NCBI RefSeq assembly: GCF_006337085.1
Contig: NZ_CP040882.1
Coordinates: 18,654 to 48,653 of the forward strand
Length of the DNA: 30,000 nt
Direction of reading: 5' to 3'
From: Sutterella faecalis
GTDB taxonomy: Bacteria; Pseudomonadota; Gammaproteobacteria; Burkholderiales; Burkholderiaceae_F
Part shown: positions 1 through 26,261 of the stretch, one piece after another
How the letters are laid out: every line of letters begins with the position of its first letter
Numbering within the stretch: the stretch's first letter is position 1
Made by a program: the position numbers and the translations under genes
Notes under the pieces: model-generated
The model's input: only the letters and a program-made list of their open reading frames with translations
Told to the model about the DNA's origin: nothing
Database searches by the model: none

Positions 1-23
1 GGAGAAGGAAAAGGAGACGCAGG

Positions 24-1493
24 GTGACTGAAGAAAGCGCACAAAAGCGAAGGACGCGGCGCGATCTGCTGGGGAGCGTTTTTGCGTCTGCTGTTGCCGC
101 GGGCGGCCTCACCCTCGGGGGCTTCTCCAACGCTTCCGAAAAGGAGGCAAAGCTTCCGGCGGAAGCCGACGTCGTCGTTGTGGGATCCGGTATCGCCGGG
201 CTCTCCGCTGCCGTCGCTGCAAAGGAGGCCGGCGCGAGGCGCGTGCTGCTTCTGGAAAAGGGGCCGATTGCGGGCGGACACAGCATTTATTCGAGCGGAA
301 GCATCAGCGTTGTTTCCCCGCGGCTGCAGGGGCCTAAGGGCTTTCAGGATACGCCGAAGCTTTTTGCCGAGGACGCCTACGCCTACGGCGACAGCTGCGG
401 TGACCTTGCGATTCTCGAAAGAATCGGAGCGGAGTCGGAATCTGCGCTCCTCTGGCTTGCATCCATGGGCGTGCGGTTCGGCGGCCTCTTTACCGCCAGA
501 GCCGAAACCCGGCCGAGATGCGTCTCGAGCTACGGGAATTCCGCGGGCCGAAGCTACGTACTCGCGCTCATGACCCGGGCGGATGCGATGGGCGTCGAAG
601 TTCTCCTCGAAGCGGATCTGCGGTCGCTGGACTGCCTTACCGACGGCAGCGGCTGGAGCCTCGGCGTGAAGCGCAAAAGCGCCCCTGCGCTTCAGTACCT
701 CAAAACCCGCGCCGTCGTTCTGGCAGCAGGAGGTTTCGGCGCATGCCGCGAAATGCGGATGAAGGTGATGCCGGAGCTCGATCCGCAAATAGAGACTTCT
801 GCGAATCCCTTCGGCACGCTTTGGGAAAACCGGGATGCGACGGCCGCGGAGCTTGCGCGAAATGCTGGAGGCTTCTGGAAGGAAGGCTTGGGGCTCCAGC
901 TCCTCCCCTACTGGGGCGGGCGGCTCATCGACTACGCGGGCGGCGACATCTTCATCACGCTCCGGGGTCGCCGCTTCATCGACGAAGGCCTCGCATGGAA
1001 CAAGATTTCTGCGGCTGTTCTCCGGCAGCCCGAGAAGGAAATCTGGGTGATCACCGACAGCGCCTCAAGAAAGAGCGCGACCCTCGGCCTCAAGATCGCC
1101 AACGGCTTCGTGAAGAAGTCGGACACTGTGGAAGAGATGGCGGCGGGGATGGGCATTCCGGCAGCGGTATTGAAGGAAACGCTCGACAAATACAACCGCG
1201 CCGCGCGCGTTGGGTTCGACCCGGAGTTCGGGAAGACCATCTTCACGCAGACGCTCGATCATCCGCCTTACTACTGGGGGCGCGAGCGGATTATCGTACA
1301 CACGTCCCTCGACGGCATCGCGACTGACCGGGAGGCGAGGGTAATCGATGCACGCGGCCTCCCCATTCCGGGGCTCTACGCCGCGGGCGAATTCGCGGGC
1401 GGGATTTTCGGCCGCGACCGCATCGGGGGCGCGGGGATTTCCAACTGCCTCGTGATGGGGCGCGCTGCCGGGAGAAATGCGGCCCGCGTCTGA
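24..1493 (+). CDS. Exported FAD-dependent oxidoreductase of the fumarate-reductase/flavocytochrome-c flavoprotein family, with a Tat signal
   Basis: 489-aa ORF with a GTG start at 24, preceded by AAGGAG at 10-15. The N-terminus has the twin-arginine motif RRTRRDLLGS followed by a hydrophobic stretch. It has the dinucleotide fold VVVGSGIAGLSAAVAA..LLEKG and the C-terminal GLYAAGEFAGGIFG..GGAGISN motif typical of this family. Confidence 0.85.
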   Translation: MTEESAQKRRTRRDLLGSVFASAVAAGGLTLGGFSNASEKEAKLPAEADVVVVGSGIAGLSAAVAAKEAGARRVLLLEKGPIAGGHSIYSSGSISVVSPRLQGPKGFQDTPKLFAEDAYAYGDSCGDLAILERIGAESESALLWLASMGVRFGGLFTARAETRPRCVSSYGNSAGRSYVLALMTRADAMGVEVLLEADLRSLDCLTDGSGWSLGVKRKSAPALQYLKTRAVVLAAGGFGACREMRMKVMPELDPQIETSANPFGTLWENRDATAAELARNAGGFWKEGLGLQLLPYWGGRLIDYAGGDIFITLRGRRFIDEGLAWNKISAAVLRQPEKEIWVITDSASRKSATLGLKIANGFVKKSDTVEEMAAGMGIPAAVLKETLDKYNRAARVGFDPEFGKTIFTQTLDHPPYYWGRERIIVHTSLDGIATDREARVIDARGLPIPGLYAAGEFAGGIFGRDRIGGAGISNCLVMGRAAGRNAARV

Positions 1494-1520
1494 TTGTCCT
1501 CCTTTTTCTTCTTTTCGATT

Positions 1521-1550
1521 CTCCACTACACCCGGGCGGGTGTAGTGGAG
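1521..1550 (+). terminator. Perfect 12-bp stem hairpin downstream of the first reductase gene; possible terminator or RNA-processing site
   Basis: ctccactacacc-cgggcg-ggtgtagtggag read directly. No U-tract follows on the + strand, so function as an intrinsic terminator is uncertain. Confidence 0.35.
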
Positions 1551-1660
1551 AAAGGCACCCTCCCGGAAAATGACGGGCATGTCCCGGATAAAAGGCAAGG
1601 CTTCAAACCCGCCTTGAATGTCCGGAGACGGCACGCAAATTGATGAAGAGGAGATTGAGA

Positions 1661-2581
1661 ATGCAGCGTCGTCATCTGTTCGGTACCGCTTTTGGAGCTG
1701 CCGCAGCGGTTGTGGTTCCGGCGGCGGAAGCGAGCGTTTCGGATCATTTCGGCGAGAAGATGCGCCCGATCGATACGGAAAACCGCGCGCCCGGCTGGGG
1801 CGTCGGCGCTGTGAAGCCCCTGGAAGTCAAAGGGCGCCGGATCGGCGAGGGACGTCCGAAGCTCATCGCCCCGACGACGAGCAAAAACCCCGCCGACCTT
1901 TATCAGACGCTCGAAAAGTTTGCCGGCATGGAGGCGCTCGACATGGTCGAGGTCCGCATCGACTACCTTGGGAAACTCGCGCCGGCTGAATTTGCCGAGG
2001 TCACGCAGAAGGCCTACAAGGCGGCAGGCGACAAGATCGTGCTCGTGACGCTTAGAAACGGCACCGACGGCGGCCCCTTCATTGCCGAGGACAAGTACTA
2101 CGGCGACGTTTACCGCGCCGTTATTGAGTCGGGCAAGGCCGACATCATCGATCTCGAGCTCTTCCGCGATGCGGACATGATCCGCTCCCTCGTCAAGGCA
2201 GCGCACGCCAAAGGCATCAAGGTCATCATCAGCGACCACGAATTCAAATTCACGCCCGACGAAGGCGAAATCATCCGGAGGCTGCTGCTCGAGCAGGAAT
2301 TCGGCGCCGATATTCTGAAGCTTGCCGTCATGGCGTTCTCGCCCGAAGATGCGCTCACCGTGATGACCGCAACCGCGAAGATGCGCCACTACTACAGCGA
2401 CCGCCCGATGCTCACGATGGCGATGGGAAAGTGGGGCGTTCTCACCCGTATCACGGGCGAGGGGTTCGGCTCCGACCTCACCTTCGCGTCCGTGGGCGGA
2501 AAGGCGAGCGCGCCCGGCCAGATTCCGGCTGAGGAATGCCTCTCGGTTCTCGATACGCTTCACCGCGCGATGAATCCGTAA
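1661..2581 (+). CDS. Type I 3-dehydroquinate dehydratase paralogue with an N-terminal Tat-like export signal (predicted periplasmic)
   Basis: The ORF opens at 1640, but GAAGAGGAG at 1646-1654 favours the ATG at 1661. The N-terminus MQRRHLFGTAFGAAAAVVVPAAEA-SV looks like a twin-arginine signal with an AxA-type cleavage site. The mature part aligns motif by motif with the cytoplasmic AroD at 20828-21586: ISDHEFKFTP vs [19 protein letters not shown] vs [20 protein letters not shown] vs [18 protein letters not shown] in both. Confidence 0.8.
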   Translation: MQRRHLFGTAFGAAAAVVVPAAEASVSDHFGEKMRPIDTENRAPGWGVGAVKPLEVKGRRIGEGRPKLIAPTTSKNPADLYQTLEKFAGMEALDMVEVRIDYLGKLAPAEFAEVTQKAYKAAGDKIVLVTLRNGTDGGPFIAEDKYYGDVYRAVIESGKADIIDLELFRDADMIRSLVKAAHAKGIKVIISDHEFKFTPDEGEIIRRLLLEQEFGADILKLAVMAFSPEDALTVMTATAKMRHYYSDRPMLTMAMGKWGVLTRITGEGFGSDLTFASVGGKASAPGQIPAEECLSVLDTLHRAMNP

Positions 2582-2659
2582 TGCTGATGCTTCCCGTACC
2601 TCGCGATTGCCTAGAATATTCTCGTTTCTACTGACCAATTCCCAAAGGGATTTTCAACC

Positions 2660-4459
2660 ATGAAGAAGACTTTTGCTGCTCTTGCGGTTGCCGCGCTTTT
2701 CGCGACCGCCGCTTCCGCCGCCACCTTCAAGGCGGGAACCTACACGGCTTCCGCCCCCGGCATTCACGGTCCCGTTACCGTTGAAGTGACCTTCACGGCC
2801 GACAAGCTTTCCGCCGTCAAGGTCGTGAAGCAGACCGAAACTCCGGGCATCGGCACGCTCGCCGTCGACCAGCTCCCCCAGAAGATCGTCGACGCCCAGT
2901 CGCCGAAGGTTGACGGGGTCTCGGGCGCCACGATTACGTCTGATGCCATCCGGAAGGCCGTTGCCGACTGCGTGAAGCAGGCGGGAGCCGACCCGGAAGC
3001 GCTTGTTCCGGTGGTGCTCAAAAAAGTTGCCAAGAATGAAGACCTCGCCACTGACGTCGTCATCGTGGGCGGCGGCGGTGCCGGCATGTCCGCGACCATC
3101 CGCAGCCGCATGAACGGCCTCAACGTGATCCTGGTTGAAAAAATGCCCTTCATCGGGGGCGCCGCTTCGATTTCGGGCGGCCAGGTTGTCGCTCAGGGCT
3201 CGAAGCTCCAGAAGGCCTTCGGCTCCAAGGACGACTCCGTCGACTCGATGGTGCAGGATTTCTTGAAGAACGGCGCCGGCAAGAACGATCTCTCGAAGCT
3301 CACGCTCTATGCGAAGAACGTCGGCCCCACGATCGACTGGTTGAATGAAAAGGTGGGCGTTAAGTTCATCCCGAACGATCTTCCCTACCTCGCCGAGTAT
3401 TCGCACCGCCGCGCGCTCGAATTCCAGGGGGGCGCCGGCACCATGGCGCAGCACCTGCGCGAAGTGATTGCGCAGAACGGCGCCAAGGTCTTCTACAACA
3501 CCCGCGTTGAAGACCTCATTGTCGAGGACGGGAAGGTCACGGGCGTGAAGGCGGTCGACTTGAACAGCGGCACGACCTACACCATCAAGGCGAAGAAGAC
3601 CCTCCTCACGACGGGAGGCTACGGCAACAACAAGTCGCTCCTGACGCCCGAAATGCAGAAGGTTCTCTACTACGGTCCGGTCTCCTCGACGGGCGACGGC
3701 CTCCAGATGGCTGAGAAGCTCGGCGTCAAGACTCAGCTCCTCCAGTACGGCAAGCGCTATCCGAACGGCATCGAAGTCGCTCCGGGCAAGGCCAAGTCCA
3801 CGATTTACGCCAATGTCGGCGCCTTTGATCAGGCGGGCATTCTCGTCAACGTGAACGGCGTCCGCTTCGTGAATGAAAAGGCTTCAAACCGCCACATTCT
3901 CGAGCCGATGCTGAAGAACCCCAACGGTCAGGCCTATGTCTTCATGGATCAGAAGTCCTGGGAAGGCTTCTACAAGCGCCTCCCCGAAACGGGCGTTTCG
4001 CATGAGGATGCCGACAAGTATCTCGCTAACGGCGGGAAGACTCCGCCGCTCTTCGTGAAGGCCGATACGATCGAAGGCGTCGCGAAACTCGCGGGCATCA
4101 ATGCTGAAAACCTGAAGGCGACCGTTGCCAAGTACAACGGGTTCGTGAAGGCCAAGAAGGATGCGGACTTCGACCGTCCGGTTCAGTACATGAAGGCAGA
4201 GATTTCGGCCGAAGGCCCCTACTACATCGTCGAGCAGAAGCCGCGCTTTGCGACCACGATGGGCGGCGTCTGCACGGACGACAAGCTCAACCTCGTGAAG
4301 AAGGACGGCTCGGTCATCCCGAACCTCTACGGCGCGGGTGAAATCGTGGGCGGCGTGATGGGCGACGACTCGCCTGCCGGCGCCAACGTGGGCTGGGCCC
4401 TCACGTCGGGCCGCGTGGCTGCCGACAGCATCGCGGAAGCCATCAAGGCCGGGAAGTAA
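2660..4459 (+). CDS. Sec-exported flavin reductase: FMN_bind domain fused to an FAD-binding fumarate/urocanate-reductase-like domain (UrdA-type architecture)
   Basis: 599 aa with signal peptide MKKTFAALAVAALFATAASAA. The flavinylation-type motif DGVSGAT lies at residues 85-91 (nt 2912-2932). It has the fold VVIVGGGGAGMS..ILVEK and the C-terminal NLYGAGEIVGGVMG motif. Confidence 0.88.
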   Translation: MKKTFAALAVAALFATAASAATFKAGTYTASAPGIHGPVTVEVTFTADKLSAVKVVKQTETPGIGTLAVDQLPQKIVDAQSPKVDGVSGATITSDAIRKAVADCVKQAGADPEALVPVVLKKVAKNEDLATDVVIVGGGGAGMSATIRSRMNGLNVILVEKMPFIGGAASISGGQVVAQGSKLQKAFGSKDDSVDSMVQDFLKNGAGKNDLSKLTLYAKNVGPTIDWLNEKVGVKFIPNDLPYLAEYSHRRALEFQGGAGTMAQHLREVIAQNGAKVFYNTRVEDLIVEDGKVTGVKAVDLNSGTTYTIKAKKTLLTTGGYGNNKSLLTPEMQKVLYYGPVSSTGDGLQMAEKLGVKTQLLQYGKRYPNGIEVAPGKAKSTIYANVGAFDQAGILVNVNGVRFVNEKASNRHILEPMLKNPNGQAYVFMDQKSWEGFYKRLPETGVSHEDADKYLANGGKTPPLFVKADTIEGVAKLAGINAENLKATVAKYNGFVKAKKDADFDRPVQYMKAEISAEGPYYIVEQKPRFATTMGGVCTDDKLNLVKKDGSVIPNLYGAGEIVGGVMGDDSPAGANVGWALTSGRVAADSIAEAIKAGK

Positions 4460-4540
4460 TTCCCCTGGGTCTTAACCGATCGTTTCCTTCTTAAGGCGGC
4501 GCAGCGTCTGGAGCGCCGCTCCAGGAGTGAAACGAGAAAG

Positions 4541-4580
4541 AGAGCCGCCGGAACTTTCTCGGTCCCGGCGGCTCTTTATT
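4541..4580. terminator. Bidirectional intrinsic terminator between convergent genes
   Basis: The stem gagccgccgg/ccggcggctc (4542-4551 and 4565-4574) is followed by tttatt on +. The - strand also has a T-rich tail. Confidence 0.7.
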
Positions 4581-4645
4581 GGATGGGAATCAGGCTGAGG
4601 ATTCCTGATCCGGATGATGGAAAGCGGAAGGTCGTTTCCGCTGAC

Positions 4646-6196
4646 TTACGCCTTCGCAGCGGCGCGGATGCGCGCGAGCACCGGGTTGACGGAGGTCCCG
4701 TCCCAGGCTTTCTGCGCCGACTCGAGGAGGTCTTCCGCGTCGTAGATCCGGGCGGAGTCGCGGCACGCCTGAAGCTCATGGTCGGACGCGGCAAAGCGGA
4801 TGTCGGCGTCGTCCTCGTCCCGCACGACGCCGAGCGTCTGGAGCCTCACGAGCGAAGCGATGAAGTCGTCGGGGTAGTTGTCAATCCAGTCGTATTCGTC
4901 GGCGACGCCGACCTTCTTCAGATACTTCGCGTAGAGCGCGTCAATGACCGCGATGACGACGTACGTCATGAAGAACCGTCCCTGAGGCGAAGCGCCTTCA
5001 AAGCTGGTGCCGTTGTAGGCGTCCATGCAGTCGGCGATGGTCTTTGCATCATGCGGGATCGCGTCGAAGTTCTGGTACCAGATTCCCTCGACATTCATGA
5101 GATCGAGTTCGGCATTGTTGGTAAAGAACGCCTTGAAGCCGCAGATTTCTCTTTTTTTTTGGAATTCTTCCTGCGTGAGGCGCCCGTCGTTCAGTACCCA
5201 TTCGAGGCCTTCGGCCGTTGCGTCTTCATAGGATCTTTCATGCAGAAACACGGCCGAGACCGGCTTCTCAAGACGAGGGAGCACCAGGCCGGAAATGGTT
5301 TCAGTGGAGCTGCCCGTCTTCTTCCATTCCGGATTGTCGTCCGTATCCTTTTTCACTAGCTTCCGGGCGATTCCTTCAGCAGGTTCAAGATCGATGCTCG
5401 ATTGAGCAAAGAACTTGAAGCCTTTCTTTTCGAGCTTGGCAAGCGACCGGAAGTCGGAAGGGGAGGTAATCCAGTCGACCACGGTGACGTCGTAGCCCTC
5501 CTTCAGGGCGCCGGTGCGGTCAAGGAGGCATTGAACGGCTTCGAGCGCCGCCTTGGCGCAGTCCGGATAATTTGCTTTCGACGGGAAGCCGCCCAGCACC
5601 TTGGGATCATCGGGCTGCGAGAAGTCCAGAATGGAAATCGAGGATCTCGCGAAGCTCGGGCTGCAGCGGACGATTGGTTCCATGCCGATGGAAACGGCAA
5701 GGCGCTTCGCGCCCGAGCGCCGGATGCGGGCGGCGTTGAAGCGCTCGAGGAGGTTGGGGCTCCGGCTGATCTCGCGGAACAAGTCGTTCATTTCCATCTC
5801 GCTCAGAGCGCCGGAACCGAAAAGCTTGCTCGGCCGCGAGACGACGGCCCGGTCGGCGAGGTCGGAGAGATCCTTCCGTCTGAAGCTCTCCGTCAGGAAG
5901 AAGGAGGCTGTGGAGCCGACAGCAGCGTTGAGGAGGTGGAGCGTGAGCGCCGGGTTGTATCCGAGCGCCTGGGACATGTCTTCGACGAGTCCGGTCTCCT
6001 CGAGCGTCCGGGCAATCAGCGCGGTGAGCGCGGGATAAACCGTGTCGTCGGTATCGAGATTTACGTCGCGGACCACCATCTGATCGCGAATTTCGCGAAG
6101 GCGCTTGGGATTTTCGAGAATTTTGACGTCTGAAGCTTCCATGATAAAAGGCCCGTCCGGCCGTCTGAATGTCAACAATGTCGGACTATCGCACAT
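4646..6196 (-). CDS. Hypothetical protein of 516 aa, with weak resemblance to an IS4/IS1634-type DDE transposase core that has degenerate catalytic positions
   Basis: Long ORF with normal amino-acid composition, whereas the overlapping + strand ORFs are V/G/R/D-rich antisense-type. Segments such as YDVTVVDWITSPSDFRSLAKLEKKGFKFF and WYQNFDAIPHDAKTIADCMD..GRFFMTYVVIAVIDAL recall the VvDRGf and Y..R..IE..F.lK regions of IS4/IS1634 transposases, but key residues are not conserved. The start is ambiguous between ATG 6196 and ATG 6142, and neither has a good RBS. Confidence 0.6.
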   Translation of the reverse strand: MCDSPTLLTFRRPDGPFIMEASDVKILENPKRLREIRDQMVVRDVNLDTDDTVYPALTALIARTLEETGLVEDMSQALGYNPALTLHLLNAAVGSTASFFLTESFRRKDLSDLADRAVVSRPSKLFGSGALSEMEMNDLFREISRSPNLLERFNAARIRRSGAKRLAVSIGMEPIVRCSPSFARSSISILDFSQPDDPKVLGGFPSKANYPDCAKAALEAVQCLLDRTGALKEGYDVTVVDWITSPSDFRSLAKLEKKGFKFFAQSSIDLEPAEGIARKLVKKDTDDNPEWKKTGSSTETISGLVLPRLEKPVSAVFLHERSYEDATAEGLEWVLNDGRLTQEEFQKKREICGFKAFFTNNAELDLMNVEGIWYQNFDAIPHDAKTIADCMDAYNGTSFEGASPQGRFFMTYVVIAVIDALYAKYLKKVGVADEYDWIDNYPDDFIASLVRLQTLGVVRDEDDADIRFAASDHELQACRDSARIYDAEDLLESAQKAWDGTSVNPVLARIRAAAKA

Positions 6197-6236
6197 TTTG
6201 CCGATCTCTGAGGGATAGATCTGAATGAGATGGCAG

Positions 6237-6284
6237 ACAAAAAAGCCTCTTCCAGGAATGGCAGAGTTGACCTGGAAGAGGCTT
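6237..6284 (-). terminator. Intrinsic terminator of the 6365-7903 reductase gene
   Basis: A 14-bp perfect stem aagcctcttccagg/cctggaagaggctt (6243-6256 and 6271-6284) is followed on the - strand by a T-run, seen as the A-run at 6239-6244 on +. Confidence 0.8.
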
Positions 6285-6364
6285 CACGCTGGCCGTTTCT
6301 CCCTCAGGCTTGAGGTGTGAGGAAAAAGCGGACGTTTTCTTGCGGGGACGAGACCGGAAGTCGA

Positions 6365-7903
6365 TCAGCTGCGCTTTTCAGCAGCCGCGTTTTCCCCTGC
6401 AATCAGGCCGAAGGAGGAGCAGTCCGGCATGGAGCAGGCCGTGAGGCGCTCCTGCCCGTGAAGGCCGCCCGACGCTTCGCCCGCAACATAGAGTCTCGGA
6501 ATCGGAGCGCCGTCGCGAAGGCGGATTGCCTGAGCCTTTTCGTTGGTGCGGATGCCGCCCGGCGTGTAGTTGAGCCGCGGCGTCACGACCATCGTGTAGA
6601 AGGGGCCTTCGGCCGAGAGCGGCTCCACCTTGCGCCCGGAGCGCTCCATGGGCTTGTTGAACTCGGTGTCCCTGCCGCCTGCAATCAGCTCGTTGTATTT
6701 GACGAGGCTCTCCTGGAGCGCCTTGCCGTCGGTGCTGTAGTGCTTTGCGAGTTCGTCGAGCGACGTAAACTTGAGAATCGCGCCGTCGATGCCGTTCTTG
6801 TCGGCGAGGCTTTGCTCGAGGCGCTTCATGTTGTGGAATTTTTTAAGCGCCTTTTCGTCCCAGACGATGAAGGGCTTGCGGTCGCCGTTGCGCAGACGAT
6901 GCTGGAGAACGGCGCTCGCGAGCGTATTGCGCGTTTCGCCTTCGCTCATGAAGCGGCGTCCGGTGGCGGGATCGATGAGCATGCCCCAGATCATGTCTTC
7001 GGTCGGGAGCGGATAGGCAAAGCGGAAAAGCGAAAGCTGCACGGCCTGAGCGCCGGCCGCCTCGAGCATCTTGAGGGATCCGGCCGTGGCGCCCGCATTG
7101 GTGGTCGATACAACGCCTGCGAGGAAGGGAACCTCGGACGAGCGGAAGGCCTTGTCCTGGGCATAGCCGCCGGTCGCGAAAACAACTGCCTGGCGGGCGC
7201 GGATCGTCTTCATGACGCCGGTCGAATTCGCCCAGTCGTCGTCCGCATTGCGCGAGAAAACATAACCTTCGCGAACCCGGAGGCCTGAGGCTTCTCCCTT
7301 TTCATTCAAAAGCACTTCCTCGGCGCGGCACTTCGTGCGGATCTGAATGTCCGAATGCGCCTTCATCCAGCTCCAGAGCGCGGAAAGCATGCCGGCGCCG
7401 CCGCCCTGGGCGGAAAGGCCGCGCGCGACGCTGTGGCCGCCAAGCTTGAGAAGACGCCCGTCCCATTTGACGCCGTGAGCCGTGAGGAAGGCTTCCACGC
7501 GGGCGGTGGTCTGCGCCATGAGGAGCGCGCGTTCATAGCTTCCGAAGCCGCCCGAAACCTTCGCCATGTCGCCTGCGAGGAGTTCTGGAGCGTCCTTGAC
7601 GCCTTTTTCCTTCTGAAGCGGCGAGCCGACGCAGGCAAAGTCGAGGCCGGACACGAGAGACGTGCCGCCGGGAAAGGACATTTTTTCGAGCATCAGGACT
7701 TTGGAGCCTTTTTCCGCTGCGGCAATGGCCGCAATCGTCCCGGCGATGCCCGTGCCGACCACGATCACGTCGACTTCTTCGTCCCATTTGCTATTAGTCG
7801 GCGCGGCGTGCGCGGGATGCGCGGCAAAGGGCGCGAGAGCGGCGGCGCCGAGAGCGGCTCCGGCTGAACGGGTGAGAAACTGGCGGCGGGACTGCGGGTT
7901 CAT
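6365..7903 (-). CDS. Tat-exported FAD-dependent reductase of the fumarate-reductase/flavocytochrome-c flavoprotein family
   Basis: 512 aa. The N-terminus is MNPQSRRQFLTRSAGAALGAAALAPFAAHPAHA, giving the SRRQFL Tat consensus and AHA cleavage. It has the fold VIVVGTGIAGTIAAIAAAEKGSKVLMLEK and the C-terminal RLYVAGEASGGLHG motif. Confidence 0.88.
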   Translation of the reverse strand: MNPQSRRQFLTRSAGAALGAAALAPFAAHPAHAAPTNSKWDEEVDVIVVGTGIAGTIAAIAAAEKGSKVLMLEKMSFPGGTSLVSGLDFACVGSPLQKEKGVKDAPELLAGDMAKVSGGFGSYERALLMAQTTARVEAFLTAHGVKWDGRLLKLGGHSVARGLSAQGGGAGMLSALWSWMKAHSDIQIRTKCRAEEVLLNEKGEASGLRVREGYVFSRNADDDWANSTGVMKTIRARQAVVFATGGYAQDKAFRSSEVPFLAGVVSTTNAGATAGSLKMLEAAGAQAVQLSLFRFAYPLPTEDMIWGMLIDPATGRRFMSEGETRNTLASAVLQHRLRNGDRKPFIVWDEKALKKFHNMKRLEQSLADKNGIDGAILKFTSLDELAKHYSTDGKALQESLVKYNELIAGGRDTEFNKPMERSGRKVEPLSAEGPFYTMVVTPRLNYTPGGIRTNEKAQAIRLRDGAPIPRLYVAGEASGGLHGQERLTACSMPDCSSFGLIAGENAAAEKRS

Positions 7904-8027
7904 TTTTTCGTCTCCTTCTGATCCTTCAAAAGGGAGCCGGTCTGGGCTCCCGTGAACTGCAGGAAAGCTTAGAGGGAGAAGATTTCACGACCGCATCAAT
8001 GGCGTCGGCGGAGGTTGCAAAAAGGTT

Positions 8028-8774
8028 TCAATCGAAGGATTCCGAAAGGTCGGTAATGACGTAGCCGACGCCGGAGTATGAAGAGATGACGGAACCGTCG
8101 GCGCCGGCATCCGAGAGCTTCCTGCGGATGCGGGCAAAGGCGACGCGCAGGAGCGAAAGTTCGCCCAGGTGCTCGGCTCCCCAGACCTCCCGGATCAAGG
8201 CGTCGTGCGCAATGACGGCGCCCGGGTGCTTCACGAGCGCAAGAAGGAGCCGGAATTCCGTGTCGGAAAGACGGATGGGCGTGGTTCCCCACCGGCATTC
8301 GCGTTTTTCAGGGACCAGAATGAGCGGGCCGTTGACGAATTCCTCTGCGCGGGAAGATCTGTTTGCCGCAGAGGCCCTGGCGGAAGTCCTTCTTAATACC
8401 GCCGCAATGCGCGCCGCAAGCTCCTCCATGGCAAAGGGCTTTACCAGGTAGTCGTCGGCACCGGCGCTCAGGCATTTGGTTTTGTCTGAGAGTTCCGAAC
8501 GGGCCGTAAGCAGAATGACGGGCACCTCGCTTTCCTCCCGAAGCTTCTGAAGAAAGGCAAACCCGTCCATGCCGGGCATCATCAGGTCGAGCACGATGAG
8601 CTGCGGCTTCGGGTCAAGGCGTTCCCAGATCTGAAACCCAATTTCGCCGTCAGCGGCCTGAGCCGTGTCGTAGCCGAGCGTTTCGAGATTGGCCGCGACG
8701 AGCCGCCGGATTCGGCTTTCGTCGTCGATGATGAGGATGAGCGGGCGGGCGGCGTGGGGACTGGAAGTTGTCAT
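8028..8774 (-). CDS. OmpR-family response regulator (REC plus winged-helix DNA-binding domain)
   Basis: The receiver motifs ILIIDDE, LIVLDLMMPGMDG and DDYLVKPF are present, and the C-terminal region LSDTEFRLLLAL..GVGYVI is OmpR-like. The ATG at 8774 (MTTSS...) is chosen because the longer ORF from 8909 would overlap the kinase gene. Confidence 0.9.
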   Translation of the reverse strand: MTTSSPHAARPLILIIDDESRIRRLVAANLETLGYDTAQAADGEIGFQIWERLDPKPQLIVLDLMMPGMDGFAFLQKLREESEVPVILLTARSELSDKTKCLSAGADDYLVKPFAMEELAARIAAVLRRTSARASAANRSSRAEEFVNGPLILVPEKRECRWGTTPIRLSDTEFRLLLALVKHPGAVIAHDALIREVWGAEHLGELSLLRVAFARIRRKLSDAGADGSVISSYSGVGYVITDLSESFD

Positions 8775-8820
8775 GGCTTGTTGGGGGAAAATGCGGCCGG
8801 GAGAATGTGCTTGAATCCAT

Positions 8821-10971
8821 TCAATAGGGAATTCTGACGGTGAACGTGCTGCCGACGTGAGGCGTGCTCGCGACTTCAATCGTTCCGCCGTGAGCACGAA
8901 CGATCGCAAGCGAAATGACGAGCCCGAGGCCGGTGCCGCCGCTCCGTCTGCGCATGCCCATATTTACCTGATAGAAACGGTCGAAGATTCTCTTTTCCTC
9001 GCCTTCGGGAATGCCGATGCCGTTGTCGGAAACGGAGAGGAGAAGCTCGGAATGCTTCGTTTCCGCATGAACTTCAATGATGCACTCGCGCTCCTGGGCC
9101 CGGTAGCGGACGCTGTTCGAGAGGAGATTCGTGAGGAGCTGCAGGAAGCGGTCGGGGTCAACGTTGACGCACTCGGCGTCCGGATCAATGGTGATTCGGA
9201 TTTGCGCCGGTCCGAGCGCCCGGACGCGCTTCTGCGCGCGGAGGATGATGGGCTTCAGCTGCACGATCCGCTTTTGAATGATGAAGGTGCCGCCGTCAAT
9301 GCGCGCCACATCGAGCCAGTCGGAAATCAGCTGCTGGAGCGCCCCGACTTCTCTCTGCATGCCCTGAAGAAGATCGTCCTCAAATTCTTCGCTCCAGCCG
9401 GCATCCCTGCGGGTCAGGGTTTCCGCAGAGAGCGCAATGGCCGCGAGCGGCGTTTTGAGCTCATGCGCCACGACGCCGATGAGATTCTCCTTGAGGGTTT
9501 CCATTCTGGCGGCATCCGTAGCGTCATGAATGAGAATACCGCGGGCGAAGCGGTCTCCTCCCTCAATGGGAAAGGCCGTTACGTCGAGAAAATGTTCACC
9601 GGAAGCTGATTTGAGCTGAAGCCGATGCGTGCCGCCCGAGAGCACGGCCTCCGGTTCTGGCGCCTTATTGCCGGCCCGAAAGCATTGGGCAACAAGCGTC
9701 CCGGCAGCTGAGCCGAGGATCTTTCCTGAGGCGGATGCTGCAAAGAGGCGCTCGGCGCGGTGATTGGCCCAGACAATGACGCCCTCCTGGTCGAGAAGAA
9801 GAAGCCCGTCCGCAAGACTCTCAAAAATCCTGGAGAGCATTTCCATCTGGGTTCTGAGCGCTTTTGTCTGTCGGGCGACTTCGTCGGCGAGATGGCGGTT
9901 GACGGACTCGATTTCTGCGCGGGCGATGGAGAGCCGCTTCATGAGGAGGCCGAACTCATTCTGCAGAGCTTCAAACTCAGCGAGCGAATGTATGCGCTCA
10001 CAGGAAAGCGGCTCGGGTCTCGCGGCCGCTACCTGACTTTGAAGCTTGAAGAGCGCCTTTTCAATCGGGCGTCGTGCGAGCATGCCTGCCAAACCGGAAG
10101 CTCCCAGAACGAAAAGAATGAGAAGAAGGCTGCGAAGAACAATTCCGGTGAGTTCCATCTGACGCAGCGCATTGGGTTTGGCAACCATGACGCGCCAGTC
10201 TCCGCTGAGGCCGGTTTGGGCGAACCACCCTTCGAGGACTTTTTGGCCCTGAGCGGCCTGGAAGGGAATCGGTCCGGGAGAGGTTGGGCTTTCCTCCGGG
10301 ATAAGCGCCTCAAAAGTGCTGATGGGCGCAGATTCAAGCCCGCGGGAAGCATAGAGAATTCCGCCTTTGCTGTCGGTAATCCAGATTGCGTCGCCCGGAT
10401 TTTCGTATTCGGCGGCAAGCGCCGCAAACTTCTTGAGGTCGAGCGCGCAGACGGCGAAGCCGGCAAGTTCGCCTGTCCGGGTTCGCGCCTGAGCGCCGAT
10501 GTTGACGATGCGCTCATCCGCCGCGCCTGTTGCCTCAAAGCTCGCGGAAATCCAGTAGGGCGCATCGGTTCGCCGTTCCTTCCAGTGCCTGCGCCCGCGG
10601 TGATCCACGCCGTTGTTGGGAACGCCCGCCGGGTTGAGAAGCGGATGAAAGCCCCTTGAGATGCCTTCGGGCGTGTCGAAATGCAGATTGAGAAAGGCCG
10701 GTTCGGCGCGGGCGATATGGGAGAGCGTTCTGTCTCTTGCCTCGATAGAAGCGAGTTCCGGCAATTCCGAGGCCGCGAGAAGCATGAGTTCGAGCGCAGA
10801 GGAAAGCCTCGCGTTGATCGCCTCTGCAATGCGCTCGGCTGTCATTCTCTGCCTCTTTTCGAGCGCATCCATTTCGCTGACGACGTTCCTCCACTCGAAG
10901 GCGGCAAGCACGACGATGGGAATGATGGCTACGGCAGCCGTGGCGGCAGTGAGCGCTTTGCGAAACTGCAT
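8821..10971 (-). CDS. Sensor histidine kinase with two TM helices flanking a roughly 250-aa Cache-like periplasmic domain, then coiled-coil/PAS, HisKA and HATPase_c domains
   Basis: 716 aa. TM1 is AATAAVAIIPIVVLAAF and TM2 is IVLRSLLLILFVLGASGLAGMLA. The periplasmic segment contains RRHWKERRTDAPYWISASFEATG...IVNIG, a Cache-like pattern. The H-box is VVAHELKTPLAAI, and the N/G boxes are LLSNSVRY and GTGLGLVISLAIV. Confidence 0.9.
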   Translation of the reverse strand: MQFRKALTAATAAVAIIPIVVLAAFEWRNVVSEMDALEKRQRMTAERIAEAINARLSSALELMLLAASELPELASIEARDRTLSHIARAEPAFLNLHFDTPEGISRGFHPLLNPAGVPNNGVDHRGRRHWKERRTDAPYWISASFEATGAADERIVNIGAQARTRTGELAGFAVCALDLKKFAALAAEYENPGDAIWITDSKGGILYASRGLESAPISTFEALIPEESPTSPGPIPFQAAQGQKVLEGWFAQTGLSGDWRVMVAKPNALRQMELTGIVLRSLLLILFVLGASGLAGMLARRPIEKALFKLQSQVAAARPEPLSCERIHSLAEFEALQNEFGLLMKRLSIARAEIESVNRHLADEVARQTKALRTQMEMLSRIFESLADGLLLLDQEGVIVWANHRAERLFAASASGKILGSAAGTLVAQCFRAGNKAPEPEAVLSGGTHRLQLKSASGEHFLDVTAFPIEGGDRFARGILIHDATDAARMETLKENLIGVVAHELKTPLAAIALSAETLTRRDAGWSEEFEDDLLQGMQREVGALQQLISDWLDVARIDGGTFIIQKRIVQLKPIILRAQKRVRALGPAQIRITIDPDAECVNVDPDRFLQLLTNLLSNSVRYRAQERECIIEVHAETKHSELLLSVSDNGIGIPEGEEKRIFDRFYQVNMGMRRRSGGTGLGLVISLAIVRAHGGTIEVASTPHVGSTFTVRIPY

Positions 10972-11213
10972 GAGGGCGTCGGGAGAGGAAAGCTTGGAGA
11001 AGAGGATCGGTGCTTCGAACTTACCACAGGTGGGCGGCCGGAATGACCAGCTCCCAGTTGGGGATGCTGAAGCAGCGTTGAGGATAAGGAGGTCCTGCGG
11101 GATGAGAACGGCATGAAATAATCAGTTCTCGAGGTTCCTCAATATCGAGCAGCAAAACTGCGGGAGAGGAGCCGTGAGGCAGAACCTCTCTATGAGTCGC
11201 CGGATATTTCAAT

Positions 11214-11640
11214 ATGACCAACTTCGATACAAAGACGCTTTTTACTGCCGCTCTGATGCTCCCGGAGCCTTGGTACATCGACCAGGTTGATTTCCGTGAG
11301 GAGCCGGGCAAGGCCCGGACGCTTCACATCTTCATCAAATTCAGGCAGGACGCTCGCTTCCAGGATCCTGCAGCGGCGGGCGGAGCGAAAGCTTCCCCGG
11401 TTCATGACACGCTTCCGGGCACCTGGCGGAATACGAATTTCTTTCAATACCCGTGCCTCATCCATTGCGATGTTCCTCGGATCCTTGGGAGCGACGGCAG
11501 GATTCGGCAGGTTGCGGTTCCCTGGGAACGAGCGGAGAGCGGTTTCAGGCGGCTTTGAGTGGTTGATGCTCTCTCTCGCTCCGAAAGGGAATCGCCGGCC
11601 GCCGCCGATGATTTTTTCCTGCGCTGCGCCGCGGCAATGA
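11214..11640 (+). pseudogene. Decayed N-terminal remnant of an ISL3-family transposase
   Basis: The 114-aa ORF LPEPWYIDQVDF..LHIFIKF..VHDT..TWRNTNFFQY.C.IHC.VPR...VPWERAESGF follows the ISL3 N-terminal/zinc-finger pattern, but the CxxC cysteines are replaced (FQDPAAAG). The continuation (FEWLMLSLA..) sits in another frame, and there is no catalytic domain before the next gene. Confidence 0.7.
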
Positions 11641-11743
11641 GGATTGATGAGCTCCGCTCAGGACGCTGCCTCTGCCCGTACACGACATCGCCAATGGCAC
11701 AAGCCGATGGCTTTTTGGGTCGCGCCGTCTTTGATGCCTATTG

Positions 11744-12586
11744 ATGGACGTAACAAGAAAAATGGATGAAAAGGAATTCAGGGAAATTGAAGCCAGGCTC
11801 CTGAGCGACAAGAAGATGGCGTTGGAGATGACGGATGACATTTTCAAAAAGCTCAATGAACAAAAGCCGCTGACTCCGCCGGCTGTCGCCCGTCTCCGCG
11901 ATGAAATGATGCTGGAAAACACCTTTGATTCCAACGCGATCGAGGGTTCGCGCCTGACTCTGCGGGAAACCGTTCTGGTCGTCAAGGAAGGCGTTAGGGA
12001 TGGAAATGGGTTCCGCATGAAGGATGTTCTTGCCGCCCTGGGCTACGCTCGTGGCTTTGAGGTGATTTTGGATTTGGCAGATCAAGAGATCCCCTGCGAT
12101 GAGGACGTGATTAAGCGGCTCCATCAGTACGTCATGCTCGGCGCCTTCCCTGAATATTGCGGCGTTTGGAGGGATCACGCGGTCAGGGTGCTGGGGGCTG
12201 CCCTCAAACCGGCCGGGTTTCGGGAGATTCCGCAGAAAATGCACGATCTCGTTGCCTGGTACCAAAATGAAGATGCGATGCATCCGATCGAAAAGGCCTC
12301 AAGGTTTCATGCGGAGTTCGAGACGATTCATCCTTTTGCCGACGGCAATGGAAGAACCGGGCGGCTGCTTTTGAATTTCATGCTGGTCCGCGAAGGCTAT
12401 TGGCCTGCGAATATCCGTTGTCAGGAAGATCGCGAGCGGTATTACGCGGCGCTTTATTCGTTTCAAAGCAGGGGAAATGTTGACGATCTGACGGCGCTGA
12501 TCGCCGTGAGAGAGGCGGAGCAGCTTTTGTATTGCCTCAAAATCGCTTTGCAGCCGGAACATGCTCGACAGGGCCGTTCCTGTTGA
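11744..12586 (+). CDS. Fic-family protein (class II, putative AMPylase) with an internal inhibitory motif
   Basis: The Fic motif HPFADGNGRTGRLL is present, and the N-terminal inhibitory-helix-type motif SNAIEG matches (S/T)xxxE(G/N). The start is ATG 11744, with TTG 11741 or ATG 11762 also possible. The gene is visibly more A/T-rich than its surroundings. Confidence 0.88.
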   Translation: MDVTRKMDEKEFREIEARLLSDKKMALEMTDDIFKKLNEQKPLTPPAVARLRDEMMLENTFDSNAIEGSRLTLRETVLVVKEGVRDGNGFRMKDVLAALGYARGFEVILDLADQEIPCDEDVIKRLHQYVMLGAFPEYCGVWRDHAVRVLGAALKPAGFREIPQKMHDLVAWYQNEDAMHPIEKASRFHAEFETIHPFADGNGRTGRLLLNFMLVREGYWPANIRCQEDRERYYAALYSFQSRGNVDDLTALIAVREAEQLLYCLKIALQPEHARQGRSC

Positions 12587-12914
12587 ATTTGTAGTTTCTG
12601 TCTTTCGAAATCTCGCAAGAGATGCTTTAGAGCGATAGGATGACTTTCCTGCCGCCCGAGACGGATGCGACAAACTGTTCTCTCGGCCTTTTAGCCGAAT
12701 TGCTTCAAGGCTTGGGAAGCTCAGGTTGGGCGGCGTCGAGAATGGCGCGTAAGTTCTGAAGTGTATGAGGAAAAAGCTTGAGAAGCTGCTGGCTGATATC
12801 AGGGCTCTTAGGGGGCGGGAGGTCTGTAGCCATCCCTTATGGCTAACCGCATACGATTTTGATGGTAAAAACGATGTATTTGTGATGATAAAAAGTACCG
12901 ATTGCTTCTGTTTG

Positions 12915-12992
12915 ATATGATCATGATTGTATGAATGATGGTATCAATACAATCATGATTGTATAATGATTGTATCGTGATCGTATGATCAC
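12915..12992. promoter_or_regulatory. A/T-rich promoter/operator region with palindromes and ATGATTGTAT repeats upstream of the 13018 gene
   Basis: An 18-bp perfect palindrome atacaatcatgattgtat lies at 12947-12964 and overlaps a TATAAT at 12962-12967. ATGATTGTAT occurs three times (12923, 12955, 12966). The inverted repeat gtgatc-gtat-gatcac lies at 12977-12992. Confidence 0.5.
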
Positions 12993-13017
12993 GCCTGTTA
13001 TAAGTCGGAGCACAGCC

Positions 13018-14697
13018 ATGACCGAACTCTACGAAGCTCAAAAAGGACTTTTTCCGGAAAGAGAAACATTGACCGTTGAGTTCAAAAGTGATCCAAAAGG
13101 AGGGCTGAAGAATGACGTTGTCGTAGACACGGCAGTGGGTTTTGCAAATGCAGAAGGCGGAACGCTCTTCATTGGCCTAAACGATGACGGCTCGGTCGGT
13201 GGAGTGAAGTCGCCAAAATGGAGGAATCCGGAGCTGGCGGTTGCCTACATTGCTTCGCACAGCGTTCCCCCGATCACTGCAACGGCCGAAATCGTCAGGG
13301 TTTCTGATGCACTTGAAGTGCTTGCCATTCATGTGCCGAAAGCCACAGGCATTGTTGCAACGAATGATGGAAAGCTCATGAAGCGTCGCATTAAAGCTGA
13401 TGGGACACCGGAAACATCGCCACTTTTTCCGCAGGAATTTATTTCGAGGCTTGCGGAAATCGGGCGTTGCGACTATTCGTCCATGACACTTCCCAACACG
13501 ACGTACGATGACTTCGATGCCAATGAACGGCAGAGGCTTCGCGAGTTCCTCCGGGACAACAATGGCGAAAAAGCGCTCATGGATCTCGAAGATGAGGATC
13601 TCGACAAAGCGCTGGGGCTGGTCCGTGGCTCTCCCGAAGGCTTGATTCCTACAATAGCGGGGATTCTCATCCTGGGGAAAGAAAGGCGGATTAGACAGCT
13701 GCTTCCAGGCGCCGGGGCGGTTTTCCAGCACCTTGCCGGCACAGATGTGCTCGCGAATGAAGAGATGCCGCTGCCACTTCTGAAGGGCTTTCAGGCGCTT
13801 CTTGACCGCTTCAATGCAAGAAACAGCGAGACCGAGATTACGCAGGGTCTGGCGCGTATTGCCATTCCGACATTTTCCGAACAGGCGTTTCGCGAGGCGC
13901 TCGTCAACGCTTTCTGTCATCGCGACTATACGATCCTCAATCGCGTTTCCGTCCGTCTCTCTGATGACGGACTTGAGATCACGAGCCCTGGCGGTTTCGT
14001 TTCCGGTGTGAGTCTTGAGAACCTCCTCACCGTTGAGCCGCATCCGAGAAATGGACTTCTCGCCGACGTGTTGAAGCGCCTCGGATTGGCGGAACGGACA
14101 GGCAGAGGCATTGACCGCATCTTTGAAGGGAATCTTCTCTACGGGCGACCGAGCCCCGACTATTCGGAATCGAATTCCGACAGTGTTCGTGTTTTCTTTC
14201 CGAAGTGCGATCCTAATATTCCGTTCTTCCAGCTCATCATCGAGTATCAGAAGAAGCTCGGAAGTCGCATCTCCGTTCAAAGCTTAATCGTACTGTCTGC
14301 AGTACTCTTTGCCAAACGCCTAAACTTCGCCGGAATCGCCGCTGCGACGCATATCCCGGAATTGAGGTTGAAGCGCCATGTAGAGACGCTGGTCGAAGAC
14401 GGTCTCCTTGAAGCAAGAGGCAACGGCCGCGAGCGCGACTTTATTTTGAGTCCGAAGTTCTATAAAGCGCAGAAGCGTGTAATTGAGCACGTGCGCCAAG
14501 CCGGAATCGGGGCCGTAAAAAATGAGGATCTGATCATGCAACTTGTCCAGGAGCAGGGCAATGTGACGCGCAGTGACGTCGCCGCGCTCCTGGGCGTTAA
14601 TCCGCAAATAGCCTATCGGCTATTGAAAAAGCTGGTTGAGGACGGTGCTCTCGTCCGTGAAGGTGCCAAGCGTCTGAGCGTCTATCGCTTAGCCTGA
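13018..14697 (+). CDS. AlbA_2 (Schlafen-like) domain protein with an HATPase_c_4-like region and C-terminal winged-helix domains; putative ATP-binding transcriptional regulator
   Basis: The ATG at 13018 is preceded by GGAG. The N-terminal ETLTVEFKSD...GFANAEGGTLFIGLNDDG matches the AlbA_2 pattern, and the middle AFREALVNAFCHRDY...ERTGRGIDRIF matches the HATPase_c_4 pattern. The C-terminal regions (LVEDGLLEARG.., LLKKLVEDGALVREG) are wHTH-like. Confidence 0.8.
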   Translation: MTELYEAQKGLFPERETLTVEFKSDPKGGLKNDVVVDTAVGFANAEGGTLFIGLNDDGSVGGVKSPKWRNPELAVAYIASHSVPPITATAEIVRVSDALEVLAIHVPKATGIVATNDGKLMKRRIKADGTPETSPLFPQEFISRLAEIGRCDYSSMTLPNTTYDDFDANERQRLREFLRDNNGEKALMDLEDEDLDKALGLVRGSPEGLIPTIAGILILGKERRIRQLLPGAGAVFQHLAGTDVLANEEMPLPLLKGFQALLDRFNARNSETEITQGLARIAIPTFSEQAFREALVNAFCHRDYTILNRVSVRLSDDGLEITSPGGFVSGVSLENLLTVEPHPRNGLLADVLKRLGLAERTGRGIDRIFEGNLLYGRPSPDYSESNSDSVRVFFPKCDPNIPFFQLIIEYQKKLGSRISVQSLIVLSAVLFAKRLNFAGIAAATHIPELRLKRHVETLVEDGLLEARGNGRERDFILSPKFYKAQKRVIEHVRQAGIGAVKNEDLIMQLVQEQGNVTRSDVAALLGVNPQIAYRLLKKLVEDGALVREGAKRLSVYRLA

Positions 14698-14809
14698 TTT
14701 ATCAGCCGGCAGCTCAAATTGGAGTCTTCGTCTTCGGAAACGCAATGCGGATATCAAGCAGTGGGTGCCGCCAGCCGCAACCAAACCCATGCAGAACCAT
14801 GTGAAAGCC

Positions 14810-14861
14810 ATTCCTTGCAGACATCGGAATAAAAGGAATGCTGATTATTCCTTGCAGGAAT
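14810..14861. repeat. Direct and inverted ATTCC/GGAAT repeats in the intergenic region upstream of the dipeptidase gene
   Basis: attccttgcag occurs at 14810-14820 and at 14847-14857. The hairpin-capable aaggaat..attcctt and attcc-ttgca-ggaat (14847-14861) were read directly. Confidence 0.4.
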
Positions 14862-15113
14862 AGATGTTGCATCTGTCATTTCCTGAAACTGATGCCATAA
14901 AAAACAATAAGAAATGGTGCTTCATGTGTTCCTGAAGCGACCAAAATCCCGAATAAGCACAAAAAGCATGCCGCCGGCATGAACTGAAGTTGGGACTTGT
15001 CCGAATAGAGATCTACAACAAATGTCTTAATCTCGTCTCCACAGCCGGGAGGGCGCTTACATAGCGTCCTGACAGAGCTGAAAAAAGAAATACCATCAAA
15101 TGGAGAGAACTCT

Positions 15114-18933: not shown

Positions 18934-18980
18934 TTTCTCTTTTCCTTGAAATGGGAAAGGTTTGGGAATTTGGGAAGGTG

Positions 18981-20573: not shown

Positions 20574-20827
20574 GGAATTCTCCGGATAGAGCGGCCCGCA
20601 CCGGGAGAACCCTGCGGACGCTTTGCTCGTAAATTTGGGGTTTCGGATTCGTCTACGCCCTTTTCGGGCGCGAGATAACCCGGCTGCGGCGCTTTTAGGG
20701 CGCAGCAGAGTGCTGGAGGTTTTCAGAAAATCGATCGTGCGGGCCCGCAGGGAAGAACTTCACTCGTGCGGGCGCGGTCCGCGTCCCGGCTGAAGAACGC
20801 CGGGGAGCGCGGGAAGACGGCCGGAAA

Positions 20828-21586: not shown

Positions 21587-21695
21587 TTCAGAATCCGGAG
21601 AGAGGAGAAAGTAAGGATACGGTGCTTTTCGGGGATCCGCGCCCCCCGCCGGACGGAGCTGGAGAAGATGCCGTCCGGACGGGGAAGTCAGCGGA

Positions 21696-22559: not shown

Positions 22560-22734
22560 TTTTGACTCCTTCAAATATTTAGGAAATGCGGAAGATTTGG
22601 AGATCGGGGTTCCGGGACCAGGGATCGGGTCCATGAGCCGGAGCGCCCGGGGATATCCGGCTTCCGGGGAAGAGCGGGGAAAGGTTCCTCACTCTTTCCG
22701 GAAAAGCCTGTTGGGTTGGGTTAGAGAAAGCGGA

Positions 22735-26234: not shown

Positions 26235-26261
26235 TCCAGCGCATCGCAGGAGAAATTCATC

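Follow-up and report, generated by a model that had tools for sequence, protein, structure and literature searches.

A conserved periplasmic gene module in Sutterella faecalis as a candidate for respiration of quinate- and shikimate-type acids

Three exported genes at the locus

The DNA analysed here is a 30,000-nucleotide stretch of the Sutterella faecalis genome (contig NZ_CP040882.1, positions 18,654 to 48,653 of the forward strand; hereafter the window, with positions counted from its first letter), and the subject is a group of three genes at 24-4459 encoding two flavoproteins, named RedA and RedB, and between them a type I 3-dehydroquinate dehydratase (dehydroquinase). All three open reading frames (ORFs) were verified on the plus strand where the original prediction had placed them. 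That prediction named a reductase exported by twin-arginine translocation (Tat), an exported dehydroquinase and a Sec-exported FMN_bind-FAD reductase, and both the family matches and the export signals agree with it. As the ORFs are long and the family matches strong, the trio lies far beyond chance. The features of the locus are as follows.

24..1493, plus strand: RedA, 489 amino acids, Tat-signal flavin adenine dinucleotide (FAD) flavoprotein of the Fcc3/UrdA superfamily
1519..1552, no strand assigned: 16-bp perfect palindrome with a NarL-like core, probable operator of the module's LuxR-type regulator (see below)
1661..2581, plus strand: exported type I 3-dehydroquinate dehydratase, 306 amino acids, Tat signal (the listed ORF begins at 1640)
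2660..4459, plus strand: RedB, 599 amino acids, Sec signal, FMN_bind and FAD_binding_2 domains
4541..4575, no strand assigned, read on the plus strand: GC-rich hairpin of 14 bp with TTTATT after it, where the transcription unit likely ends

The spacer between RedA and the dehydroquinase gene measures 167 nucleotides and that between the dehydroquinase gene and RedB 78 nucleotides, with no terminator-like site on the plus strand between the three genes. The hairpin at 4541-4575 sits between RedB and a convergent gene of 516 codons and, judged from its sequence, likely ends the transcription unit. No RNA element was matched in the spacers by Rfam at E <= 0.1 (window 1-6400). For comparison, homologue loci were collected by a scan of one genome per species and labelled L001 and upward; L001 is from S. 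seckii ASD393, L005 and L016 are from S. wadsworthensis DSM 14016, and L012-L014 are from Parasutterella.

The dehydroquinase ORF (1640-2581) matches PF01487 DHquinase_I (E 3.3e-55, 188 bits against a cutoff of 22.2) and TIGR01093 aroD (185.5 bits against 139.3), and solved AroD structures match the protein at E 5e-50. Because its homologues are about 306 amino acids long with the N-terminus MQRRHLF (an MxRR start), and because a GGAGA ribosome-binding site lies 7 nucleotides upstream of ATG 1661, translation most likely starts there rather than at 1640; residue numbers below refer either to the 313-residue form (start 1640) or to the 306-residue form (start 1661). In the Tat signal, the RR pair and the A-x-A cleavage motif, cut before Ser, are invariant in 19 homologues. 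All 25 sequences compared share the Schiff-base lysine K227 and the general acid/base H200 (313-residue numbering), the counterparts of K170 and H143 in Salmonella AroD, and a pairwise alignment to Salmonella AroD (3L2I) shows identity at E46, R48, R82, H143, K170, M203, M205, R213, F225, S232, A233 and Q236. Glu86, the partner of His143, is replaced by Asp (TDGG) in the clade of the window's enzyme and is Glu (TEGG), as in AroD, in a Parasutterella-type clade. Apart from this exchange, which appears conservative, the exported enzyme is thus predicted to keep an intact AroD active site. From about residue 60 onward its AlphaFold model forms a TIM barrel of high confidence, with a predicted local distance difference test score (pLDDT) mostly above 90. 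Residues 1-55 of the 306-residue form (8-62 of the 313-residue form; window 1661-1825) are unmodelled, with pLDDT below 50; they include the signal peptide and, after its cleavage site, an extension of some 25 residues at the mature N-terminus, in which P43, D45, N48, G52 and W53 are invariant and which is possibly a partner-docking peptide. The exported enzyme shares only 39% identity with the cytoplasmic AroD that the window also encodes, and is therefore an extra, specialised copy.

RedA carries the twin-arginine signal KRRTRRDLLG at its N-terminus and PF00890 FAD_binding_2 (E 2.7e-47) as the only domain detected, without an electron-entry domain of the haem or covalent flavin mononucleotide (FMN) kind. 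RedB has the Sec-type signal MKKTFAALAVAALFATAASA, cleaved before Ala, followed by PF04205 FMN_bind (E 7.6e-19) and PF00890 FAD_binding_2 (E 2.4e-57); the flavinylation motif D85-G-V-S-G-A-T91 lies within FMN_bind, making Thr91 the putative flavin acceptor. RedA matches Fcc3 at E 7e-54 and RedB matches UrdA at E 4e-50. On TIGR01813 the two proteins score 260.7 and 265.8 bits, both under the cutoff of 285.45. KstD structures are matched by RedB at E 6e-25 and by RedA at 1e-14 or weaker. A KstD-type identity of RedB, raised by secondary NCBIfam and PDB matches, was rejected, as its C-terminal active-site segment is Fcc3-like (6e-11, compared with 0.02-0.07 for KstD).

Active-site positions were mapped with MAFFT in Fcc3 numbering over 14 RedA and 13 RedB orthologues, RedC (a third flavin reductase, from the window and L001) and 11 other paralogues from the loci, with the following outcome.

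Fcc3 H365: Leu or Ile in the RedA group; Tyr in the RedB group, as in UrdA
Fcc3 R402 (proton donor): Trp in 13 of 14 RedA proteins and Phe in one (L042); Asn in 13 of 13 RedB proteins
Fcc3 H504: kept in the RedA group; Ala in the RedB group
Carboxylate-binding Arg of the N-R-L-G-G motif: kept in the RedA group; Ser in the RedB group

An Arg one residue past position 402 is limited to the RedB clade of the window. The RedA group shares a conserved W-GGRL-x-DY motif, and the RedB group a conserved PRFATTMGG motif together with a 13-residue insertion, NGIEVAPGKAKSTIY. The RedA signature is common to all 14 orthologues adjoining exported dehydroquinases (with Phe402 in L042) and occurs in 0 of the 11 other paralogues, among which the RedB signature is likewise absent (0/11).

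Conservation of the module and its operator-like repeat

The locus closest to the window is that of S. seckii ASD393 (L001), with 97% identity for the dehydroquinase, 89% for RedA and 99% for RedB, and synteny extending over four further genes. In L001 a histidine kinase gene and a response regulator gene lie co-oriented upstream of RedA, and the window starts just past them; the trio therefore belongs to a five-gene unit. The kinase has a periplasmic PF12974 solute-binding sensor domain, for which no useful PDB relative was found as a clue to the ligand, and the regulator is of the NarL/LuxR type with a GerE helix-turn-helix (HTH).

The exported dehydroquinase clade (47-98% identity) spans Sutterella, Parasutterella, Turicimonas and Duodenibacillus and is confined to Sutterellaceae. 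The original prediction had made its case depend on the three genes being conserved as a unit in related genomes, and this is what the scan found: in 18 of 22 Sutterellaceae loci the gene immediately after the dehydroquinase encodes a RedB orthologue (50-99% identity), and 15 loci have a RedA orthologue (38-55% identity) no more than about 5 kb away, in every case as the third gene of a kinase, LuxR-type regulator and RedA unit. Three gene orders were seen.

Kinase, regulator, RedA, dehydroquinase, RedB, all in one direction: the window (trio portion) and L001
Kinase, regulator, RedA reading away from a divergent dehydroquinase, RedB pair: L005-L008 and L015-L017
Dehydroquinase, RedB, kinase, regulator, RedA, all in one direction: L009-L014

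Retention of the module through three gene orders points to a functional link. Two complete, paralogous modules occur in S. wadsworthensis DSM 14016, L005 and L016; their dehydroquinases are 74% and 52% and their RedB proteins 82% and 53% identical to those of the window. The second of these modules groups with the Parasutterella/Duodenibacillus type and carries Glu in place of Asp at AroD position 86, which suggests that the two may serve related yet distinct substrates.

A 7-4-7 inverted repeat, TACACCC-GGGC-GGGTGTA, forms the core of the palindrome in the RedA-dehydroquinase spacer (1527-1544), 117-134 nucleotides upstream of the dehydroquinase start. The same architecture occurs 60-240 nucleotides upstream of that start in most loci: repeats with co-varying arms were found in L001, L006-L009, L012, L013 and L042, near matches in L002, L003, L005, L010, L014, L015, L016 and L017, and in L011 a strictly matching site has arms that differ. 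The ends TAC and GTA are fixed, and the inner pairs co-vary (ACCC/GGGT, CCCC/GGGG, ATCC/GGAT and CGCC/GCGG). A similar site lies ahead of the probable kinase start in L001, and the repeat is retained before the orphan dehydroquinase of L002 and L003. General enrichment of the TAC-N4..GTA palindrome was considered and rejected, with 20 sites observed against about 37 in shuffles; as such, only the position before the dehydroquinase gene and the co-variation of the arms carry meaning. NarL-family regulators bind pairs of heptamers, which the 7-4-7 repeat resembles. The repeat is thus probably the operator of the module's regulator, and the dehydroquinase-RedB pair would be served by a regulated promoter of its own.

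Several observations concern individual loci. In L001 the response regulator is split by a frameshift (7755-8375), with the receiver domain and the LuxR-type HTH (LSPREREVLELVAEGLSNREAAEKLG...) in different frames and the intact HTH frame running to just short of RedA; the split either reflects a sequencing error or marks a pseudogene, and in the latter case the module would be unregulated in ASD393. In L081 an isolated dehydroquinase-RedB pair adjoins a group II intron. A Tat-lipoprotein alpha/beta hydrolase, possibly an esterase, follows RedB in S. wadsworthensis (L005, 13074-14348), and a MatE transporter and a DUF4886 protein precede the dehydroquinase gene in Parasutterella (L013, 7650-9830). 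Esterases as conserved members that free quinate from chlorogenate were rejected, as the L005 hydrolase and the L012-L014 DUF4886 protein are each found in a single species or genus. In L083 a 118-residue multi-haem cytochrome c3 (12960-13316) lies near a RedB gene without a dehydroquinase and could be an electron donor. None of these neighbours (hydrolase, MatE transporter, DUF4886 protein, cytochrome c3) is conserved across genera. Finally, two contigs binned as Oscillospiraceae and Hallella faecis (L019, L020) carry a dehydroquinase-RedB pair with RedB 82-83% identical to that of the window, and are probably mis-binned Sutterella contamination.

A scheme for hydroaromatic-acid respiration and its alternatives

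With about even confidence, the trio is read as belonging to a periplasmic module of five genes under two-component control, whose role would be the reductive respiration of acids of the quinate and shikimate family. The kinase would sense the acid in the periplasm, and the regulator would bind the 7-4-7 repeat and switch on dehydroquinase-RedB (and kinase-regulator-RedA). The dehydratase would convert periplasmic 3-dehydroquinate to 3-dehydroshikimate by the usual lysine Schiff-base syn-elimination, and RedB would pass electrons from the quinol pool through its covalent FMN to FAD and reduce the C1=C2 bond of dehydroshikimate, a bond in conjugation with the ketone at C3 as well as the carboxylate at C1. 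This step is assigned to RedB because it is the reductase that always adjoins the dehydratase and the sole member with an electron-entry domain; its missing carboxylate-directed residues fit a ketone-activated substrate (an enone), a fit that does not amount to proof. Since RedA retains His504 and the Arg that binds the carboxylate, its own redox reaction, the second on this skeleton, would most likely be the direct enoate reduction of shikimate to hydroshikimate. Support is good for the module and for its hydroaromatic theme; the exact acceptor and the role of each reductase we infer.

S. wadsworthensis and Eggerthella lenta have been reported to respire shikimate with formate, yielding hydroshikimate (bioRxiv 10.1101/2022.12.26.521950). 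In that work transcriptomics covered only E. lenta and H. filiformis, the Sutterella shikimate reductase gene was not identified, and neither quinate nor dehydroquinase appears in the text (10.1101/2022.12.26.521950). S. wadsworthensis, the documented shikimate respirer, carries the module in both L005 and L016. The proposal that dehydratase and reductases together form a respiratory scheme had originally been called undescribed. Respiration of a shikimate-pathway enoate has already been published (10.1101/2022.12.26.521950), so this does not hold for the scheme as a whole; the association of an exported dehydroquinase with periplasmic flavin reductases, and with it the gene assignment, is new, and a literature search found no paper linking dehydroquinase to flavin reductases. 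3-Dehydroshikimate as the respiratory acceptor of a flanking reductase, the core of the original prediction, is plausible but unproven, judged from gene sequence and context.

Several findings weigh against this reading. Neither the module itself nor the 10 kb around it encodes, at any locus, an enzyme that would make periplasmic 3-dehydroquinate, and aerobic relatives carry a pyrroloquinoline quinone (PQQ) quinate dehydrogenase where the Sutterellaceae loci have none; the scheme is weakest at the origin of this substrate. The canonical proton-donor Arg of Fcc3 and UrdA is missing from RedA and RedB alike, and in RedB the second canonical Arg of fumarate and urocanate reductases and their two histidines have gone as well, so that neither the chemistry nor the substrates can be read from homology. 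Published mutagenesis has shown that cinnamate reductases of the same superfamily work without the two arginines, and the absence of one in RedA and of both in RedB is therefore compatible with C=C reduction. The genes are also not always together: an 82% identical dehydroquinase stands solitary amid housekeeping genes in L002 and L003, the dehydroquinase gene of L042 is followed by an ORF of 313 amino acids without a family match rather than by RedB, and a 78% identical RedB has no dehydroquinase neighbour in L083. In addition, E. lenta reduces shikimate, yet no Eggerthella locus is among the 80 best dehydroquinase relatives, and shikimate reduction itself may therefore need no dehydratase.

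The presence of one dehydratase with two distinct, always co-occurring reductases would also be expected of a stepwise reductive dehydroxylation, in which the dehydratase acts repeatedly or on a later intermediate and four electrons are taken up per molecule. The product of the first round, 3-oxo-4,5-dihydroxycyclohexanecarboxylate, would again be a beta-hydroxy-ketone, from which a second Schiff-base elimination and flavin reduction would remove another hydroxyl, ending at dihydroxycyclohexane- or cyclohexane-carboxylates. Dihydroxycyclohexanecarboxylate and cyclohexanecarboxylate are the classical quinate-reduction products of lactobacilli and gut flora. We consider this extension unlikely, as all AroD residues that contact dehydroquinate are conserved, which favours the canonical substrate, and hydroshikimate is the only product reported for S. 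wadsworthensis.

The reverse direction of electron flow is similarly improbable. In an oxidative pathway the flavoproteins would act as dehydrogenases or desaturases and turn dehydroshikimate-type intermediates into aromatic products such as gallate or protocatechuate, with the hydroaromatic acid as electron donor and electrons passing via the FMN domain of RedB to the respiratory chain. Oxidative qui clusters are the other known setting of exported type I dehydroquinases, and the superfamily includes desaturases of oxo-cyclohexane rings (KstD, ChcC1/ChcC2), although on the ChcC1 and ChcC2 models RedB scores 113 and 100 bits, far under the cutoffs. RedA and RedB are much nearer the reductases Fcc3 and UrdA (E ~1e-50) than KstD (E 1e-25 or weaker). 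The neighbourhood contains neither ring-cleavage genes nor a dehydroshikimate dehydratase, and the organism reduces shikimate with formate as the donor (10.1101/2022.12.26.521950).

A hydrogen-borrowing arrangement, which we regard as quite unlikely, would supply the first step from within the module: RedA, lacking an electron-entry domain, would oxidise the C3 hydroxyl of quinate or shikimate and later re-reduce the 3-oxo product, the dehydroquinase would make the enone, and RedB, drawing on the quinol pool via its covalent FMN, would perform the sole net reduction and with it conserve energy. Quinate, released from chlorogenic acids in the gut, would in this way be dehydroxylated wholly in the periplasm without nicotinamide cofactors (NAD(P)). 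Were this so, quinate itself would be respirable, and the missing first-step genes of the long-known microbial route from dietary quinate to cyclohexanecarboxylate, benzoate and hippurate would be at hand.

Least probable is that no substrate is channelled, the dehydratase and reductases being co-regulated or neighbouring genes within the large and very numerous flavin reductase arsenal of Sutterella, with the exported dehydroquinase serving elsewhere, for example in scavenging dehydroquinate or quinate for aromatic amino-acid synthesis; the solitary genes of L002, L003 and L083 would suit it, but four genera keep the five genes as a group in spite of three different gene orders, the orphan dehydroquinase itself keeps the operator-like repeat, and with a separate cytoplasmic AroD in the window a periplasmic biosynthetic step makes little sense.

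On the preferred reading of reductive respiration, the five genes, the probable operator and the two active-site signatures give a testable candidate for Sutterella shikimate respiration, and from its sequence the module appears to be the best current candidate for the "breathing" of plant quinate- and shikimate-type acids by Sutterella. Few plant acids in the diet, with coffee and fruit as sources, are as abundant as quinate and chlorogenic acids. Gut-microbial conversion of quinate and chlorogenate toward hippurate precursors has been known for decades and, to our knowledge, its genes have never been assigned. An exported dehydratase that makes the reducible double bond is a design not yet described for respiratory flavin reductases; if correct, it would widen the respirable compounds to saturated hydroxy-acids and help to annotate hundreds of orphan reductases.

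Other genes of the window and comparison with known systems

The window holds further clusters and features outside the module, given here with their coordinates. A cytoplasmic hydroaromatic cluster occupies 17779-23982 on the minus strand.

22735-23982, minus strand: major facilitator superfamily (MFS) transporter
21696-22634, minus strand: YdiB/AroE-like quinate/shikimate dehydrogenase
20828-21586, minus strand: AroD of 252 amino acids without a signal, about 50-55% identical to Lachnospiraceae AroD
18981-20573, minus strand: coenzyme A (CoA)-transferase
17779-18933, minus strand: acyl-CoA dehydrogenase

This cluster resembles ydiN-ydiB-aroD-ydiF-ydiO of E. coli, and its presence in the same window marks a genome region devoted to hydroaromatic acids. 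A separate reductase unit lies at 6365-10971, also on the minus strand.

6365-7903, minus strand: RedC, the third flavin reductase, Tat-exported, which passes the TIGR01813 cutoff
8028-8909, minus strand: OmpR-type regulator, beside RedC
8821-10971, minus strand: PAS histidine kinase, beside RedC

RedC keeps Arg402 and the carboxylate Arg, and has Tyr365 and Asn504 in Fcc3 numbering. The 516-residue ORF convergent with RedB (4646-6196, minus strand) has no signal peptide, matches zero Pfam or NCBIfam families and is 91% conserved at the same position in S. seckii. Two stretches, 11000-15000 and 24000-26000, have a G+C content of 0.50-0.56 against about 0.61 elsewhere and may be mobile or defence islands; the genes in or near them include the following.

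11741-12586: Fic/DOC protein
12970-14697: Schlafen AlbA_2 / HATPase_c_4 / HTH protein

Large ORFs at 25449-28607 (1052 amino acids) and 28809-29963 have no Pfam match.

Among known systems, two share the logic of the proposed scheme, in which a dehydratase makes a ketone-conjugated C=C bond that is then used as an electron sink. One is bile-acid 7-alpha-dehydroxylation, in which oxidation to a 3-oxo compound and dehydration to an enone precede reduction by flavoproteins, and of which the hydrogen-borrowing arrangement, if real, would be a periplasmic analogue. The other is the route of Lactobacillus plantarum, in which, as Whiting and Coggins reportedly described in the 1970s, quinate passes via dehydroquinate to dehydroshikimate and on to dihydroshikimate by C=C reduction. 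The likeness would be one of logic alone, as both routes are cytoplasmic and linked to NAD(H), and their proteins are unrelated to those of the module. Acetic acid bacteria oxidise quinate via dehydroquinate to dehydroshikimate.

The cytoplasmic AroD of Salmonella and E. coli has its fold and its catalytic and substrate-binding residues, Glu86 aside, in common with the module's enzyme. The mature extension of about 25 residues is absent from cytoplasmic AroD and from QuiB-type relatives, and AroD also lacks the Tat signal. QuiB, from the qui clusters, is like the module's enzyme a type I dehydroquinase that bears a signal or an extension at its N-terminus and handles quinate-derived intermediates outside the cytoplasm, and QuiB-type proteins are the nearest relatives with an N-terminal extension outside Sutterellaceae (about 38-46% identity). 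The qui clusters of Acinetobacter and plant-associated Proteobacteria are aerobic and oxidative, leading to protocatechuate, and comprise QuiA (PQQ quinate/shikimate dehydrogenase), QuiB, QuiC (dehydroshikimate dehydratase) and QuiX (porin). The Acinetobacter locus (L056) reads pcaH-quiB-quiC-quiX-quiA(PQQ), and in Rouxiella (L035) a quiC-like gene adjoins the dehydroquinase gene. Neither a PQQ dehydrogenase nor a dehydroshikimate dehydratase was found in the window or in the Sutterellaceae loci with identified neighbouring genes; there, flavin reductases and a two-component system replace the PQQ dehydrogenase, the dehydroshikimate dehydratase and the porin.

The closest likeness of the two flavoproteins is to the periplasmic or extracellular reductases of the Fcc3/UrdA type that serve anaerobic respiration, including Fcc3 and UrdA of Shewanella and the gut arsenals of Sutterella, Eggerthella and Holdemania (10.1101/2022.12.26.521950), with which they share the FAD_binding_2 catalytic domain. 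RedB has the architecture of UrdA, that is, a signal peptide, FMN_bind with a flavinylation motif and an FAD domain, and the S. wadsworthensis reductases have also been noted beside two-component systems (10.1101/2022.12.26.521950), as in the module. Compared with Fcc3 and UrdA, the proton-donor Arg has become Trp in RedA and Asn in RedB, and to systems of this type the module adds a dedicated exported dehydratase.

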